Assembly: GCA_045807845.1 (NCBI GenBank)
Contig: JBJMGQ010000085.1
Span: forward strand, 1-51,490
DNA length: 51,490 bases
Direction of reading: 5' to 3'
Origin: Pyrinomonadaceae bacterium
Lineage (GTDB): Bacteria; Acidobacteriota; Blastocatellia; Pyrinomonadales; Pyrinomonadaceae
The notes beneath the pieces are model-generated. The model was not told the DNA's origin. It worked only from the letters and a program-made list of their open reading frames with translations, and made no database searches. Shown here one piece after another: positions 42,307 to 48,614 of this stretch. The position numbers and the translations under genes are program-made. Position 1 is the first letter of the stretch, and every line of letters begins with the position of its first letter.

Positions 42307-42681
42307 ATGACTTTGCGAATGAGACTTCCGGCCGCCGCGCTGGCGACGCTGATGCTTCTGACGGCATTCGGCACGCCGGCCGCGAACGCGGCTGAGACGC
42401 GCCTGCGCTTCTCGCACGGGCACGCGAGCAAGGTGGTGCGCGGCACCGGCGGTGCGGATTACGTGTTTCGCGCCAACACCGGCCAGAAACTGGTCGTGAT
42501 TCTGACGGCCCCGCGCGACACGATCTTCAGCCTGCAATCCCCCAACGGAACGAACATGGCGGGCGAAGGCGGAAACGGGCGCGCCGAGTTCCAGTTAGAG
42601 GAGACGGGCGACTACCATCTCTCCGTCTTCAGTCGCAGCGGCAAGCGCCGGCACTACACGCTCTCCGTCAGCATTCTCTGA
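42307..42681 (+). CDS. secreted small beta-sandwich protein (pre-peptidase C-terminal/PPC-like pattern) embedded between nuoM and nuoN
   Basis: 124 aa with strong AGGAG 7 nt upstream and a signal peptide (LATLMLLTAFGTPAANAAE). ADYVFRANTGQKLVVIL..DTIFSLQSPNG..GDYHLSVFS..YTLSVSI fits the PPC-domain pattern (from memory). Confidence 0.65.
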   Translation: MTLRMRLPAAALATLMLLTAFGTPAANAAETRLRFSHGHASKVVRGTGGADYVFRANTGQKLVVILTAPRDTIFSLQSPNGTNMAGEGGNGRAEFQLEETGDYHLSVFSRSGKRRHYTLSVSIL

Positions 42682-42724
42682 GCGGGTGGGGCGCGCGCCC
42701 CGCCCCGAAAGAAGCACGAATCCA

Positions 42725-44347
<1,623 letters not shown>

Positions 44348-44398
44348 GCCGCCCGTCGTCCACAGACACATACAGACAAGGACAAGAGGGAAGCAACA

Positions 44399-45172
44399 AT
44401 GGCAGGCGAGTTGGAAGGAAGGGTCGCCCTCGTCACGGGCGCGACTTCGGGGATAGGGCACGCGACGGCGCTCAAGTTCGCCGCCGAGGGCGCGCAGGTC
44501 GCACTCGTCGGTCGCGACGCGGAGACTCTGAGCGCGGTCGCGGAGGAGATTCGCGCGGGCGGCGGCGAGGCCGTCGAGATTCAGGCCGACGTGACCGTCG
44601 AAGCGCACGCGCGCCGCGCCGTCGAGACGGCCGTGGAAGCGCTTGGCGGTATAGACGTGCTCGTCAACGCGGCCGGCATCATCTCGAACGGCACCGTCGA
44701 GACGACGCAGCTCTCCGACTGGGACGCGATGATGAACGTCAACCTGCGCTCGGTCTTTCATCTCATGCAGCTCGCCGCGCCGTACCTCGAACGCAGACCC
44801 GGCAACGTCGTCAACGTGTCGAGCGTGACGGGCTTGCGCGCCTTCCCCGGCGTGCTCGCCTACTGCGTCTCGAAGGCGGGAGTAGACCAGCTCACGCGCT
44901 GCGCCGCTCTGGAGCTGGCGCCGAAGGGCGTCCGCGTCAACGCCGTCAACCCCGGCGTCGTCGTCACGCAGATTCACCGGCGCGGCGGCATGGCCGAGGA
45001 GAAGTACGCGGACTTCCTCGAACACTCGAAGACGACGCACCCCTTGGGGCGCGTCGGCGCGGCCGAAGAGGTCGCCGAGCTGATTCTGTTCCTCGCCTCT
45101 GACCGCGCCGCGTGGATAACCGGCGCGACTTACTCACTCGACGGCGGCCGCGCGCAAACCTGCGCCCGCTGA
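44399..45172 (+). CDS. SDR family oxidoreductase (FabG-like)
   Basis: TGATSGIGHATA (TGxxxGIG), NAAG, and YCVSKAG (YxxxK). Confidence 0.9.
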   Translation: MAGELEGRVALVTGATSGIGHATALKFAAEGAQVALVGRDAETLSAVAEEIRAGGGEAVEIQADVTVEAHARRAVETAVEALGGIDVLVNAAGIISNGTVETTQLSDWDAMMNVNLRSVFHLMQLAAPYLERRPGNVVNVSSVTGLRAFPGVLAYCVSKAGVDQLTRCAALELAPKGVRVNAVNPGVVVTQIHRRGGMAEEKYADFLEHSKTTHPLGRVGAAEEVAELILFLASDRAAWITGATYSLDGGRAQTCAR

Positions 45173-46383
45173 TGCTCGCCTTCTACATCCTCGCCGCGCT
45201 GGTCGTATTGCAAAGCCTCGCATCGCTGCGCGGCGGCGTGCGTTATCTCAACTTCTTCCGGCGCGAGTTGGAGGCGCCGCGCGCTCTCTACATGCCCTGC
45301 GCCTCGGTCTTCGTCCCGTGCCGCGGGATGGATCAAGGGCTGCGTCTGAACCTGCTGGCGCTCTTCCGTCAACACTACCCGGCCTATGAGCTGGTCTTCG
45401 TCTCCGACCGCGCGGAAGACCCCGCGCTCGAAATCGCGCGACAACTGGCGCGAGAGTTGGAGGGCGAGACGGTCGCGCGCACGCGCTTCGTCGTCGCGGG
45501 GCCTGCGAACGACAGCGGGCAGAAGGTTCACAACCTGCGCGCGGCTGTCGCGGAGGCCGACCCGTCGAGCGAGGTCTTCGTCTTCGTGGACACGGACGCG
45601 CGGGCGCGTGCCGACTGGCTGCGCGCGCTGGTCGCGCCGCTTGCAGACGAGGGCGTGGGCGCCGCGACCGGCTACCGCTGGTTCCTGCCCGCAGGCGGCG
45701 GCCTCGCTTCGCAACTGCGCTCGGTGTGGAACGCGTCCATTGCCTCGGCGCTCGGCGCGAACGTGCGCGGAAACTTCTGCTGGGGCGGCTCGACGGCCGT
45801 CCGGCGCGAGACGTTCGAGCGGCTGGGGATGAGCGACCGCTGGCGCGGCACCGTCTCGGACGACTACGCGCTGACGCGCGCGCTGCAAGCGGCGCGTCTT
45901 CCTATCCGCTTCGTGCCCGCATGCCTGAACGCGTCGGTCGAAGACTGCACCTTCCCCGAGCTGTTCGAGTTCACCACGCGGCAGTTGAAAATCACGCGGG
46001 TCTACGCGCCGCAACTGTGGGCGTTCGTCCTCGTCTCGAATCTGCTCTTCGTCTCGGTCTTCTTCGGCGGCCTCGCGCTGGCGGCGTGGCGCGGGGCGGC
46101 CGGGCTCTCGTTCGTCTGGCCGCTCGTGCTCGTGTCGGTCATCTTTCTACTGGGACTGTGGAAAGCCTTCTTCCGCCTGCGCGCCGTGGCGCTCGTGCTC
46201 GAAGAGCATCACGGGCGCCTGCGCAGTGGCGTCTGGGCGCATCTGCTGCTGTGGCCTTTGACGGCCGCGCTCTTCCTCTACAACGCGACCGCCGCCGCGC
46301 TCTCGCGCCGCATCGTCTGGCGCGGCATCGGGTACGAATTGAAATCGCCGACGGAAACTGAGATTATCGAGCCGGATGCTTAA
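45172..46383 (+). CDS. membrane glycosyltransferase, GT2/GT21-like (ceramide glucosyltransferase / HpnI-like architecture)
   Basis: N-terminal TM, PCRGMD, VFVDTDA (DxD), GGSTAVRRE, SDDYALT, TTRQLKITRVY ((Q/R)xxRW-like position), and C-terminal TM helices. The ATG overlaps the SDR stop (TGATG). Confidence 0.78.
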   Translation: MLAFYILAALVVLQSLASLRGGVRYLNFFRRELEAPRALYMPCASVFVPCRGMDQGLRLNLLALFRQHYPAYELVFVSDRAEDPALEIARQLARELEGETVARTRFVVAGPANDSGQKVHNLRAAVAEADPSSEVFVFVDTDARARADWLRALVAPLADEGVGAATGYRWFLPAGGGLASQLRSVWNASIASALGANVRGNFCWGGSTAVRRETFERLGMSDRWRGTVSDDYALTRALQAARLPIRFVPACLNASVEDCTFPELFEFTTRQLKITRVYAPQLWAFVLVSNLLFVSVFFGGLALAAWRGAAGLSFVWPLVLVSVIFLLGLWKAFFRLRAVALVLEEHHGRLRSGVWAHLLLWPLTAALFLYNATAAALSRRIVWRGIGYELKSPTETEIIEPDA

Positions 46384-47497
46384 CAAGGTCACACAACTCG
46401 TCCAGCTCCTCCGCTCGACTGAGCGCGAGCGACGCCTCGGCACGCTCATCTTCTTCGTCACGTCGCGCTGCAACGCGAAGTGCGAGACCTGCTTCTATCA
46501 CGAGGAGCTGAACCAACCGGGCGACCTGACCTTCGAGCAGATCGAGCGCATCTCGCAAACGATGCCCTCGATCACAGACCTCTGGCTCTCGGGCGGCGAG
46601 CCGACGCTGCGCCAAGACATGGACGACGTGATTCGTCTCTTCGTCGAGAACAACGGCGTGCGCCGCGTTATCATCCCGACGAACGGTCTGCTCAAGTCGC
46701 GCACCTACTCGCTCGTCGATAACGCGCTCTCGCTGAAACCAGAACTGCACCTCTACCTCAACGTCGCGCTCGACGGCTACGGCGAGACGCACGACCGCGT
46801 GCGCGGCGTGCCCGGCAACTGGGGGCGCACGCTCGACTGCATACGCGCTCTCTACCCCTTGAAGGGGAAGTACGGCGAGCGCTTTCGCCTCAACGTCAAC
46901 ACCGTCGTCTGCGCCGAGAACTACGCGGAGGTCGGCCGCCTCGCCGACTTCATGTGGGATAACTTTCAGCTCGACGGCCACTACTTCAACGTCGTCCGCG
47001 GCGAGACGAAGGCGGGCGCGTGGGTTAAGCAGATTCCGGCCGAGGTGCTGCCCCGCATGTACGCGCGCGTCTCCGCGCTGACCGAGCGCTACGGCGGTCG
47101 TATGTTCGCCGGAGACGACGCCGCGACCCGCTTCGTCAAATCGGTCGCCTACGTCGGCGCCATCACGACGCACTACCGCACACAGCACGCGAACTTCGGC
47201 GGCGCGTCGGCGTGGCCCTTCCCCTGCACGGCGGGCGAGACGACCGCCGTCATCGACTACAACGGCGACGTGCGCGCCTGCGAGCTGCGTGGAAAGTTCG
47301 CCAGCCTCTCTGACTTCGACTACGACTTCGGGAAGCTGTGGGAGTCCGAAGGGAGGCAGGCCGAGCTGAGTCAAATTGAGGGCGGCCGTGCCTGCTGGTG
47401 CACGCACGTCTGCTTCATACACGACTCGATGCGCCACTCGCGCCGCGCGCAGTTGTGGGAGGTGCCGCGGAACTACCTGACCCGGAGCCGCTGGTAA
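46376..47497 (+). CDS. radical SAM protein with a SPASM/twitch-like C-terminal Cys cluster
   Basis: CNAKCETC (CxxxCxxC), GGEPTL, and a C-terminal C..C-x(n)-C..CWC..C segment (CTAGETTAVIDYNGDVRACE..ACWCTHVCF). Overlaps the GT gene by 8 nt. Confidence 0.85.
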   Translation: MLNKVTQLVQLLRSTERERRLGTLIFFVTSRCNAKCETCFYHEELNQPGDLTFEQIERISQTMPSITDLWLSGGEPTLRQDMDDVIRLFVENNGVRRVIIPTNGLLKSRTYSLVDNALSLKPELHLYLNVALDGYGETHDRVRGVPGNWGRTLDCIRALYPLKGKYGERFRLNVNTVVCAENYAEVGRLADFMWDNFQLDGHYFNVVRGETKAGAWVKQIPAEVLPRMYARVSALTERYGGRMFAGDDAATRFVKSVAYVGAITTHYRTQHANFGGASAWPFPCTAGETTAVIDYNGDVRACELRGKFASLSDFDYDFGKLWESEGRQAELSQIEGGRACWCTHVCFIHDSMRHSRRAQLWEVPRNYLTRSRW

Positions 47498-47590
47498 AGA
47501 GAAAGACTGCGAACGCTTTCGGTCGCAAGAGCGTTTATGCTGGCAGAGGGAAGCAAACGAAACTCTATCAGCCCGCGGAGGTTTTAAAGT

Positions 47591-47863
47591 ATGAAGCTCT
47601 TCAAACTCCTGTTCATTCTACTCGCGCTCGTCTTCGTCGTCTGGGGCGGGTTCTGGCTCTTCGGCGTGGTGGCCGGCCTTTTATACTTTCTAGTCAAATG
47701 GGTCGTCATCATCAGCGTCATCGCGCTCGCAGGGGCCGGCGCCTACAAGCTGTTCGCGGGCCCCGACAAAGATGCGCAGGCCGCGCTCTCGCCGGCCGAG
47801 GCAGAGATGTTGAAGGCCGAGCGGCTGCTCGCAGACCTGCGGCGCAAGGAGTTGACCAAGTAG
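47591..47863 (+). CDS. small two-TM membrane protein with a charged C-terminal helix
   Basis: 90-aa ORF with GGAGG 9 nt upstream. Hydrophobic N-terminal two-thirds. Confidence 0.5.
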   Translation: MKLFKLLFILLALVFVVWGGFWLFGVVAGLLYFLVKWVVIISVIALAGAGAYKLFAGPDKDAQAALSPAEAEMLKAERLLADLRRKELTK

Positions 47864-47876
47864 ACGGGGGAGGGGG

Positions 47877-48113
47877 ATGGCCGAGGGCGAGCCGGATAAA
47901 GGTGACGGTCAGGAGCGCGAGGCGGCGCGCGGCAGCGGCATCGCGTACGCGGCGGGGCTCTCCATCTTCTTCTCGGTGCTCACGTGCATGGGGCTGGGCT
48001 GGGCGCTCGACCGTTATTTCGGCACCGGTTGGCTGATGGTCGCAGGCATCCTCCTTGGCGCGGCCGTCGGCTTCTACCAGTTCATACGCATCATGTCCCG
48101 GCTCGACAAGTAA
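47877..48113 (+). CDS. atpZ: AtpZ/ATPase_gene1-like small membrane protein
   Basis: 78 aa, two TM helices with GLGWALDRYFGTG..LLGAAVGFYQFIR, positioned upstream of atpI/atpB. Confidence 0.62.
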   Translation: MAEGEPDKGDGQEREAARGSGIAYAAGLSIFFSVLTCMGLGWALDRYFGTGWLMVAGILLGAAVGFYQFIRIMSRLDK

Positions 48114-48161
48114 GGGCGCGCTCGACAGGCGCGTGCGGGGGCATGTAAAATCTTCCGTTCC

Positions 48162-48614
48162 GTGATGAGCGAAGGCGCAGACAATGGGCGCCCGGCCGAG
48201 CCCGAGGACGCAGGCCCCGTAGGCGAAGCACCGCGCGAAGCCGTGAGGCGCATCTTCAGGGGAACGTTCGTCGCCGCGCTCATCGCCGTCGCCGCGAGCG
48301 TCTTCTTCGCCCCGTGGCGTGTGACGACGGGGCTGGCACTGGGCGGTGTGCTCGCGCTCTTCAACCAGCACTGGCTCCGCACTTCGGTCGAAGCGGTCTT
48401 CGAGGACGCTACTTCAGTTCAGCCGCCTAAATGGAGGGCCGCGCGCTACGTCCTGCGCTATCTGGTCGTCGCGGTCGTAGTCTTCCTAGCCTTCCAAGCG
48501 GGTCTGGTCTCACTCGTCGCGACGCTCGCGGGGATGTGCGCCGTCGTTGCGGGGCTTTTAGCGGAAGGGTTCAGGCAGTTCTACTTCGCCATCGTCAGTC
48601 GGGAGGAAACCTAG
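48162..48614 (+). CDS. atpI: ATP synthase protein I-like membrane protein
   Basis: 150 aa with four hydrophobic segments, immediately upstream of atpB. Assigned by position and topology. Confidence 0.55.
   Translation: MMSEGADNGRPAEPEDAGPVGEAPREAVRRIFRGTFVAALIAVAASVFFAPWRVTTGLALGGVLALFNQHWLRTSVEAVFEDATSVQPPKWRAARYVLRYLVVAVVVFLAFQAGLVSLVATLAGMCAVVAGLLAEGFRQFYFAIVSREET

Follow-up and report, generated by a model that had tools for sequence, protein, structure and literature searches.

A GT21-like glycosyltransferase and a radical SAM protein are encoded by a conserved gene pair between the complex I and ATP synthase genes of Blastocatellia

In a Pyrinomonadaceae bacterium (Acidobacteriota, Blastocatellia), three closely packed genes lie between the genes for complex I (nuo) and those for ATP synthase (atp) on contig JBJMGQ010000085.1 of assembly GCA_045807845.1, whose 51,490 nucleotides are referred to here as the window. 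The genes encode a short-chain dehydrogenase/reductase (SDR), an integral membrane glycosyltransferase (GT) of the GT21 type, and a radical S-adenosylmethionine (SAM) protein (rSAM). A sequence-only reading of the window had taken the three for one translationally coupled module that modifies a membrane lipid or an envelope glycoconjugate. Comparison with related genomes shows that the conserved unit is the GT-rSAM pair, not a trio, and this pair is probably a two-gene functional module. Modification of a membrane lipid or envelope glycoconjugate is still the best description of what the module would do. More specifically, we see about an even chance that the pair consists of a lipid glycosyltransferase and a sugar-editing rSAM, analogous to HpnI/HpnJ or to calditol synthase and a member of neither system.

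The sequence-only reading had staked its proposal on co-conservation in other genomes. The window proteins were placed by tblastn in the best 80 related loci from a search with an eight-sequence alignment (metagenome-assembled genomes of Pyrinomonadaceae/Blastocatellia, unclassified Acidobacteriota, and one titled only 'bacterium'), and remoter contexts were taken from twelve exact look-ups. The general order among the related loci is nuoN-[SDR]-GT-rSAM-atpI-atpB-atpE. GT and rSAM genes are neighbours in all 74 loci that hold both; they overlap in 24 of these, and the gap is at most 30 nt in 39 and at most 100 nt in 62. nuoN lies upstream of the GT gene in 67 loci, with the GT gene directly next to it in most relatives, and the F0 genes from the atpI-like gene onwards come after the pair in all of them. 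In the genomes without the SDR gene, identity to the window is 72-75% for the rSAM, 53-64% for the GT, 64-72% for nuoN and 58-67% for atpB; over loci L024-L080 the same ranges apply, with 48-72% for atpE. Part of this contrast is a selection effect, since rSAM identity was what ordered the loci, but the range for the rSAM is strikingly narrow for an accessory enzyme all the same.

Spacing between the genes of the nuoN-atpI stretch (44348-48161 in the window) varies from overlap to 2.8 kb across the 80 loci (L001-L080), and in one locus (L014) an insertion of 2767 nt separates the GT gene from the rSAM gene. The stretch is an insertion hotspot in these relatives. That the pair sits between nuo and atp genes reflects a gene order passed down in the class and is no evidence of a respiratory function. 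A respiratory role as the primary reading was rejected, since elsewhere the pair stands beside DJ-1 and an unknown secreted protein, or beside FabF-like and PanC genes.

The pair is also found well outside this setting. An exhaustive search for rSAM homologues returned 617 cluster representatives with E<1e-30. A deeper lineage labelled Blastocatellia has a GT21-like gene directly upstream of the rSAM gene (rSAM 49% identical to that of the window; GT 42%, over the C-terminus), and the same arrangement occurs in a lineage whose mates in 90%-identity clusters are labelled Terriglobia (46% and 41-42%). In both, the neighbours of the pair differ from the nuo/atp setting. The GT-rSAM pair is thus co-conserved in 74 of 74 loci that have both genes and in two remoter lineages besides.

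These remoter loci have some features of their own. The Terriglobia-type locus carries genes for a FabF-like ketoacyl synthase, a methyltransferase, a geranylgeranyl-reductase-family flavoprotein, the GT21 enzyme and the rSAM, followed by panC and an MqnA-like gene. At L091 (4912-10131; also in L092 and L093) the GT21-rSAM pair closes a tight block of genes on the same strand. The FabF-like synthase of this block is, as called, about 50 residues longer at its N-terminus than the FabF model (its cluster mates have 425-440 residues), the methyltransferase is PRK06202-like, and the flavoprotein is short; the block may represent a larger lipid pathway. A gene downstream of the deeper Blastocatellia pair (L081, 1674-2846) encodes a 390-residue protein (P0391) that lacks Pfam matches and apparently carries a signal peptide; the pair of L082 also has a partial copy of it behind it.

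Still further out, the rSAM family is repeatedly joined to glycosyltransferases covalently. Among the best 150 representatives, all eight long homologues are GT fusions (GT2-rSAM, rSAM-GT4 or GT4-GT2-rSAM), with 31-39% identity over the rSAM domain. These fusions contain the same rSAM family but GT types that differ from the GT21 type of the window, being GT2/GT4-type with weak GT21 matches only in three, and they are uncharacterised; all three fusion loci examined belong to, or adjoin, clusters of glycan- or sugar-related genes. A tree built from 120 members of the family puts the window in a supported clade of 16 (Shimodaira-Hasegawa-like approximate likelihood ratio, SH-aLRT, 96), which includes a group linked to GT21 (93) and, as its sister, a group that has no adjacent GT (97). 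Fusions occupy at least five separate places in this tree and therefore represent independent fusion events. Repeated independent fusion together with adjacency is the strongest evidence available for cooperation, and it indicates that the rSAM family probably acts with a glycosyltransferase on the same substrate.

Half of the six unfused homologues outside the GT21-linked group, three rSAMs at 37-38% identity, lie between GT2/GT4 genes. MurJ/Wzx-like genes occur in two of these three clusters, and Wzy_C genes in one of those two. Around a 38% homologue (L094, 3292-8536; also L095) are a 74-residue open reading frame (ORF), a stand-alone SPASM-domain protein of 160 residues, a B12-binding radical SAM enzyme, two GT2 genes, a MurJ-like flippase gene and a GT4 gene, making up a glycan cluster with two rSAM enzymes.

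The SDR has a very different distribution. In the tblastn placement it is present in 19 of the 67 informative loci, every one of them in the closest clade with rSAM identity of at least 75%, and the 48 loci without it keep both nuoN and the GT gene, often only 18-200 nt apart. The ancestral order is therefore nuoN-GT-rSAM, and the SDR gene is a later insertion in the window's lineage. No counterpart is present in other Blastocatellia or in the Terriglobia-type locus. Where the SDR gene does occur among relatives, its distance to the GT gene, measured between tblastn alignment ends, varies from 3 to about 1200 nt, so the tight coupling of three genes, including the TGATG junction, is a local feature of the window's sub-lineage. 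The idea of a single conserved trio is thus lost; the SDR is a lineage-specific, recent add-on outside the core system, and a functional link and a mere passenger are at present equally likely.

The SDR itself is of the classical kind, with TGxxxGxG at residues 13-20, NAAG at 90-93, S141/S142, Y155 and K159 (the Ser-Tyr-Lys set) read from the translation, and with Pfam matches to adh_short_C2 (PF13561; 225.8 bits, 7e-67) and adh_short (PF00106; 201.7 bits), the latter above threshold. The only NCBIfam model that it passes is NF005559, 'glucose 1-dehydrogenase' (235.7 bits; cut-off 215), a broad name at subfamily level that the NCBI pipeline also gives to its homologues. The best 120 homologues are all 82-92% identical, and the named ones nearly all bear the label Pyrinomonadaceae or Acidobacteria, as do nearly all named homologues of the GT and the rSAM.

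The GT matches Pfam Glyco_transf_21 (PF13506) with 59.3 bits (cut-off 21.7) and Glyco_tranf_2_3 with 66.4 bits. A profile of 20 orthologues compared with the PDB aligned over its full length with one solved family only, ceramide glucosyltransferase (E 7.6e-18; residues 27-393 to 35-385), and this collinearity with a solved GT21 enzyme, together with the Pfam score above the gathering threshold, marks it as GT21-like. The best NCBIfam match is HpnI (TIGR03472), at 125.9 bits over residues 27-412 of the longer, 423-residue ORF with a GTG start; the orthologue from the Terriglobia-type locus scores 98.2 bits on the same model, whose cut-off is 310. Across 20 homologues D83, D140xD142, D230-D231, R270, Q271, I274, T275 and R276 are invariant. 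HMMER aligned the DxD stretch to the nucleotide-binding region of ceramide glucosyltransferase, and R270-Q-L-K-I-T-R276 aligned to R-M-I-R-W-T-K of that enzyme, with Ile in place of Trp. An AlphaFold 2 (AF2) model (mean predicted local distance difference test, pLDDT, 93.5) has one N-terminal transmembrane helix (H2-34), a GT-A domain, a small C-terminal sheet, and interface and C-terminal transmembrane helices at 261-377 (transmembrane helices H280-377). The GT21/HpnI-like architecture proposed earlier, with its N-terminal transmembrane segment, DxD, R-Q-x-x-x-T-R and C-terminal helices, is thus borne out by Pfam, by the end-to-end alignment and by the model.

The rSAM matches Radical_SAM (PF04055) with 46.1 bits (cut-off 29.5; 7.8e-12) and Fer4_12 (PF13353), and nothing else in Pfam; in particular, the scan returned no B12-binding domain (PF02310). 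C32, C36 and C39 and the SGGEP SAM-binding motif at residues 72-76 are invariant across 30 homologues, and the CxxxCxxC and GGE motifs with the PF04055 score assign the protein to the radical SAM superfamily. Its C-terminus holds five conserved Cys (C284, C302, C340, C342 and C346) and H344. A full SPASM domain has seven Cys, and the SPASM/twitch motif is CX9-15GX4C followed by further Cys ligands, a twitch motif that the CX12GX4C...CxC pattern of the rSAM resembles. Matches to SPASM models fall just short of their thresholds (PF13186, 19.1 against 21.5 bits; TIGR04085, 18.4 against 27), and a twitch-like domain with one auxiliary cluster would fit this tail better than full SPASM. The description of a short, 373-residue twitch/SPASM-type enzyme with no recognisable cobalamin domain is in keeping with these results. 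Membership in a well-characterised family, which the sequence-only reading would have counted against itself, was not found: no NCBIfam cut-off is approached, the best model being TIGR04347 at 60 bits against 525.

In its AF2 model (pLDDT 93.8), the nearest solved folds of the rSAM are SkfB, BlsE, anSME, DesII, CteB and MoaA, with template modelling (TM) scores of 0.5-0.6 and 13-18% identity, and sequence matches to solved structures cover the shared radical SAM core only. The sugar-modifying BlsE and DesII among these folds support sugar chemistry. Further invariant residues across the 30 homologues are D133, H139, D140, R143, H202, R208 and E303, and since these are polar, a polar substrate would suit the enzyme. 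No publication on the family came to light when full texts were searched for twitch/SPASM enzymes linked to GTs in the context of glycolipids or polysaccharides.

Several known systems resemble parts of this pair. The parallel with hpnI/hpnJ drawn in the sequence-only reading stands as an analogy, in that both have a GT21-type enzyme and a GT-rSAM pairing, and fails as membership. HpnI is the best NCBIfam match of the GT over nearly its whole length, but 126 bits against an equivalog cut-off of 310 leave the GT outside that family. HpnJ is a B12-binding rSAM in which an N-terminal cobalamin-binding domain is combined with a radical SAM core. In contrast, the rSAM of the window has no such domain, HpnJ is absent from its best 25 NCBIfam matches, and no deacetylase accompanies the pair. 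What the two systems would have in common is the logic of the HpnI/HpnK/HpnJ route from bacteriohopanetetrol glucosamine to the cyclitol ether, where a GT21-type membrane GT sugars a lipid and a co-encoded rSAM is thought to rearrange the sugar (PMC13459092). Phenotyping and genotyping found subdivision 4 to lack hopanoids and hpn genes, except for Chloracidobacterium (C. thermophilum) (PMC5462960). A hopanoid reading was rejected on the unmet HpnI cut-off, the missing B12 domain and the hopanoid-free state of subdivision 4.

Ceramide glucosyltransferase (GT21; 26qf and related entries) is collinear with the GT throughout, sharing the N-terminal transmembrane helix, PxxGxD, DxD, (E/D)D(Y/F), the R-x-x-(R/K)-x-T motif and the C-terminal W-R-x-x-x-Y-x-L strand, but identity is low and the Trp of RxxRW is Ile in the window. 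We know of no radical SAM partner for this enzyme. BlsE and DesII, the second- and fourth-best structural matches of the rSAM, likewise combine a radical SAM core with a C-terminal Cys-rich domain for an auxiliary cluster, and BtrN is a sugar-modifying twitch/SPASM enzyme of the same group. BlsE and DesII differ in that they serve antibiotic pathways, where their substrates are soluble (aminocyclitols, or sugars linked to a nucleoside or nucleotide), and in being unlinked to membrane GT21 enzymes; they are only 13-18% identical to the window rSAM, with TM scores of 0.5-0.65. Compared by described function alone, the closest analogy for a stand-alone rSAM that edits a head group is the calditol synthase Cds of Sulfolobus acidocaldarius, an rSAM proposed to turn a lipid-bound hexose into a carbocycle by hydrogen abstraction and ring contraction (PMC13459092). 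Cds differs in being archaeal and in using glycerol dialkyl glycerol tetraether (GDGT) substrates, and it is absent from the best 25 curated family matches of the window rSAM. None of the enzymes in a 2026 review of lipid-modifying rSAMs (Tes, Mss, Gms, GrsA/B, Gmm, Cds, HpnH/J/P/R, Jaw5 and the ladderane enzymes) is like it either (PMC13459092).

From the gene structure, family assignments, co-conservation and fusions described above, we infer the acceptor, the donor, the order of steps and the type of reaction as follows. The GT would be held in the membrane by a single helix at its N-terminus and about four at its C-terminus, with its GT-A domain on the cytoplasmic face, and would move a hexose from a nucleotide sugar onto a hydroxyl group of a membrane lipid. 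This is what ceramide glucosyltransferase and HpnI do, the only characterised relatives that match it over the full length. Bacterial GT21 enzymes glycosylate diacylglycerol as well. Candidate acceptors are a glycerolipid or an iso-diabolic-acid glycerolipid; ceramide is less likely and a hopanoid unlikely. The cytoplasmic rSAM, judging from its gene linkage and fold, would then cleave SAM at the CxxxCxxC cluster, abstract a hydrogen from the sugar and edit it. Its substrate is most likely the lipid-linked sugar, the nucleotide-sugar donor being the alternative. Possible outcomes are epimerisation, oxidation or dehydration, or contraction of the ring to give a carbocycle, the reaction that has been proposed for HpnJ and calditol synthase, and an auxiliary cluster held by four of the five C-terminal Cys (C284/C302/C340/C342, plus C346/H344) would handle the electron. 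In what is the weakest step, the SDR, coupled to the GT in the window's genus-level clade, might act on that product by reducing a keto group or oxidising a hydroxy group, or might be a passenger.

A number of observations weigh against this scheme. The nearest folds of the GT model by Foldseek are hyaluronan synthase, the archaeal membrane mannosyltransferase PcManGT and the cellulose synthase BcsA, and since hyaluronan and cellulose synthases are polymerising enzymes, a glycan product is possible; the PDB library used with Foldseek is older than the ceramide glucosyltransferase entries, and the likeness to that enzyme is one of sequence. The structural matches of the rSAM are weak, and the peptide-modifying SkfB, anSME, CteB and SuiB are among them. 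Three rSAM homologues at 41-44% identity have no GT neighbour, and two of these make up the well-supported sister group inside the window's own clade. Co-transcription gains nothing from RNA-type libraries matching the stretch (ten runs, mostly soil metatranscriptomes, with 5-9% of the sequence words): the four soil metatranscriptome runs examined yielded only short contigs from relatives, at 90-95% identity, with none across a gene junction. For Pyrinomonas, a relative in culture, phosphatidylethanolamine and phosphatidylcholine are reported as the major polar lipids, and no glycolipid is mentioned (PMC4644332). Finally, no product, substrate or phenotype is on record for any member of the family.

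Some of these points favour a role in envelope glycans, with the GT as a membrane-embedded synthase or a polyprenyl-phosphate glycosyltransferase for a surface oligo- or polysaccharide, and with the rSAM editing a sugar of the glycan, presumably as the fused homologues of glycan export clusters do. The folds nearest to the GT model are consistent with this, and remote rSAM homologues are clustered with GT9, Wzx/MurJ-like, Wzy_C, EpsG and polysaccharide deacetylase genes. However, the sole full-length solved sequence relative of the GT is a non-processive enzyme with a lipid acceptor, the Trp of (Q/R)xxRW is replaced by Ile, and no gene for a flippase, polymerase or exporter accompanies the pair in the 80 Blastocatellia loci or in L091. 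We consider a glycan product unlikely on balance, though likelier than the other alternatives. It is very unlikely, in our judgement, that the SDR, GT and rSAM are independent housekeeping genes that merely share a nuo/atp transcript. That the SDR is clearly dispensable for the locus, that the nuoN-atpI hotspot has gaps of up to 2.8 kb and that some rSAM homologues stand alone would all fit such an arrangement, but the adjacency of GT and rSAM outlasts every other neighbour in at least two lineages with different class labels, and the same rSAM family has fused with GTs independently.

Even less probable is that the rSAM works on lipid tails, joining two iso-C15 chains to membrane-spanning iso-diabolic acid or methylating or cross-linking chains, while the GT supplies or recognises the head group. 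There is a gap for such an enzyme to fill: of 14 producers of iso-diabolic acid only 3 proved to have Tes homologues, no mss homologues turned up in Acidobacteria at all, and the authors concluded that there is an alternative pathway (PMC13159169). The high conservation of the rSAM in Blastocatellia, its position beside a FabF-like gene in the Terriglobia-labelled lineage and a weak core similarity to Tes/GDGT-MAS would suit that gap. This similarity is, however, confined to the radical SAM core (query residues 27-110); the rSAM is about 150 residues shorter than GDGT-MAS (526 residues), with no match past the shared core, its invariant residues are mostly polar, and the family is linked to GTs in phyla and clusters unrelated to such lipids. 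Membership in Tes/Mss was rejected on that core-only similarity and on 46.2 bits against a cut-off of 450 for NF045702. We give the least credence of all to a maturase of the sactipeptide/anSME type that modifies a ribosomal peptide or protein, with the GT glycosylating the same peptide or being unrelated. The peptide-modifying folds named above and several maturases among the weak NCBIfam matches speak for it, but every maturase model is far under its cut-off (StsB, for example, at 49 against 625), alignment and model show no N-terminal peptide-recognition domain, the core beginning at about residue 20, and no conserved small ORF lies beside the pair in the 80 loci, the hydrophobic 90-residue ORF that follows it being confined to the closest relatives. 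To our knowledge, an integral membrane GT21-type enzyme is also unlike the GTs of glycosylated-peptide pathways. The maturase reading was accordingly rejected as unlikely on its unmet cut-offs, missing recognition domain and missing small ORF.

Coordinates of the features are collected in Table 1. The layout given in the sequence-only reading was reproduced: three ORFs on one strand, an A/C-rich spacer of 51 nt after nuoN with no intervening terminator, and two overlaps. At the SDR/GT junction, TGATG at 45170-45174, the TGA stop and the ATG start have base 45172 in common; the GT and rSAM genes overlap by the 8 nt ATGCTTAA at 46376-46383. Automatic ORF calling placed the GT start at GTG 45112 (423 residues); the ATG at 45172 (403 residues), which the sequence-only reading implied, is favoured because nearly all close homologues have 397-411 residues. 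The spacer is 69% A+C, with 37% A compared with 17.5% across the window, and within it the terminator scan reported no terminator-like site and folding gave no strong hairpin. The weak hairpin beyond the rSAM stop is not a convincing terminator.

Table 1 Features of the window from nuoN to the atpI-like gene
Feature	Position	Strand	Basis
nuoN (context), at the end of the complex I cluster, stop at 44345-44347	42686..44347	+	ORF list
Spacer from nuoN to SDR, 51 nt, A/C-rich, with a GAGGGA Shine-Dalgarno-like word and without a terminator	44348..44398	+	Sequence, fold, terminator scan
Classical SDR oxidoreductase, 257 aa	44399..45172	+	ORF, Pfam, NCBIfam
GT21-like (ceramide-glucosyltransferase/HpnI-like) integral membrane glycosyltransferase, 403 aa	45172..46383	+	Pfam, NCBIfam, profile against PDB, AF2
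GT DxD motif D140-T-D142, putative nucleotide-sugar/metal site	45589..45597	+	Alignment of 20 homologues
GT R270-Q-L-K-I-T-R276, counterpart of (Q/R)xxRW with Ile for Trp	45979..45999	+	Alignment
rSAM, 373 aa, twitch/SPASM-like, of an uncharacterised GT-associated family	46376..47497	+	Pfam, AF2
rSAM cluster motif C32-x3-C36-x2-C39	46469..46492	+	Invariant in alignment of 30 homologues
rSAM putative auxiliary-cluster region C284-x12-G297-x4-C302 ... C340-x-C342-x-H344-x-C346	47225..47413	+	Invariant or near-invariant columns
Weak hairpin AACGCTTT...AAGAGCGTT 3' of the rSAM stop, without a T-run	47512..47536	+	Sequence, fold; unreported by terminator scan
Small hydrophobic (membrane-type) protein, 90 aa (context), before the atpI-like gene	47591..47863	+	ORF
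atpI-like gene (context), first of the F0 genes	48162..48614	+	Pfam ATP-synt_I, 2.9e-10

The remaining genes of the window are housekeeping genes (adenylate cyclase, RpoD, CarB, RF-1, signal peptidase and the nuo cluster, then atpI/B/E). The 90-residue ORF at 47591-47863 has a good Shine-Dalgarno site and no Pfam or NCBIfam match, and the tblastn hits to it are confined to 18 loci within L001-L019, the closest relatives. A 124-residue ORF between nuoM and nuoN (42307-42681) likewise has no Pfam or NCBIfam match, and tblastn found it in none of the 80 related loci. Nearly all DNA read sets that contain this stretch are metagenomes of soil type. The short contigs of the four soil metatranscriptome runs match conserved parts of the rSAM gene (46436-47481) at 90-95% identity; relatives' copies of the gene thus seem to be transcribed in soil, with DNA carry-over as a possible source.

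Few soil bacteria are as abundant as the Acidobacteria, whose lipids are the basis of palaeoclimate proxies in wide use. Many genes of acidobacterial lipid biosynthesis are unassigned, including those for enzymes of membrane-spanning lipids (PMC13159169). The GT21-like/rSAM pair is strongly conserved and, in this form, phylum-specific, and it provides a concrete two-gene target, now corrected from the first reading in that the SDR is not part of the core system. A bolder and, in our view, improbable version of the proposed lipid-sugar chemistry is that a B12-independent rSAM gives the membrane-spanning and ether lipids typical of Acidobacteria a radically rearranged sugar head group, perhaps ring-contracted, carbocyclic and resistant to hydrolysis. 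If true, bacteria would have an equivalent of archaeal calditol and of the hopanoid cyclitol ethers, made by a different, B12-independent rSAM family, and the GT2/GT4-fused members in other phyla would perform such chemistry on lipid-linked sugars generally. The rSAM family is repeatedly fused to or found beside glycosyltransferases in many uncultured lineages; once a single member is solved, hundreds of clusters could be annotated, and a radical reaction new to sugar chemistry might emerge.

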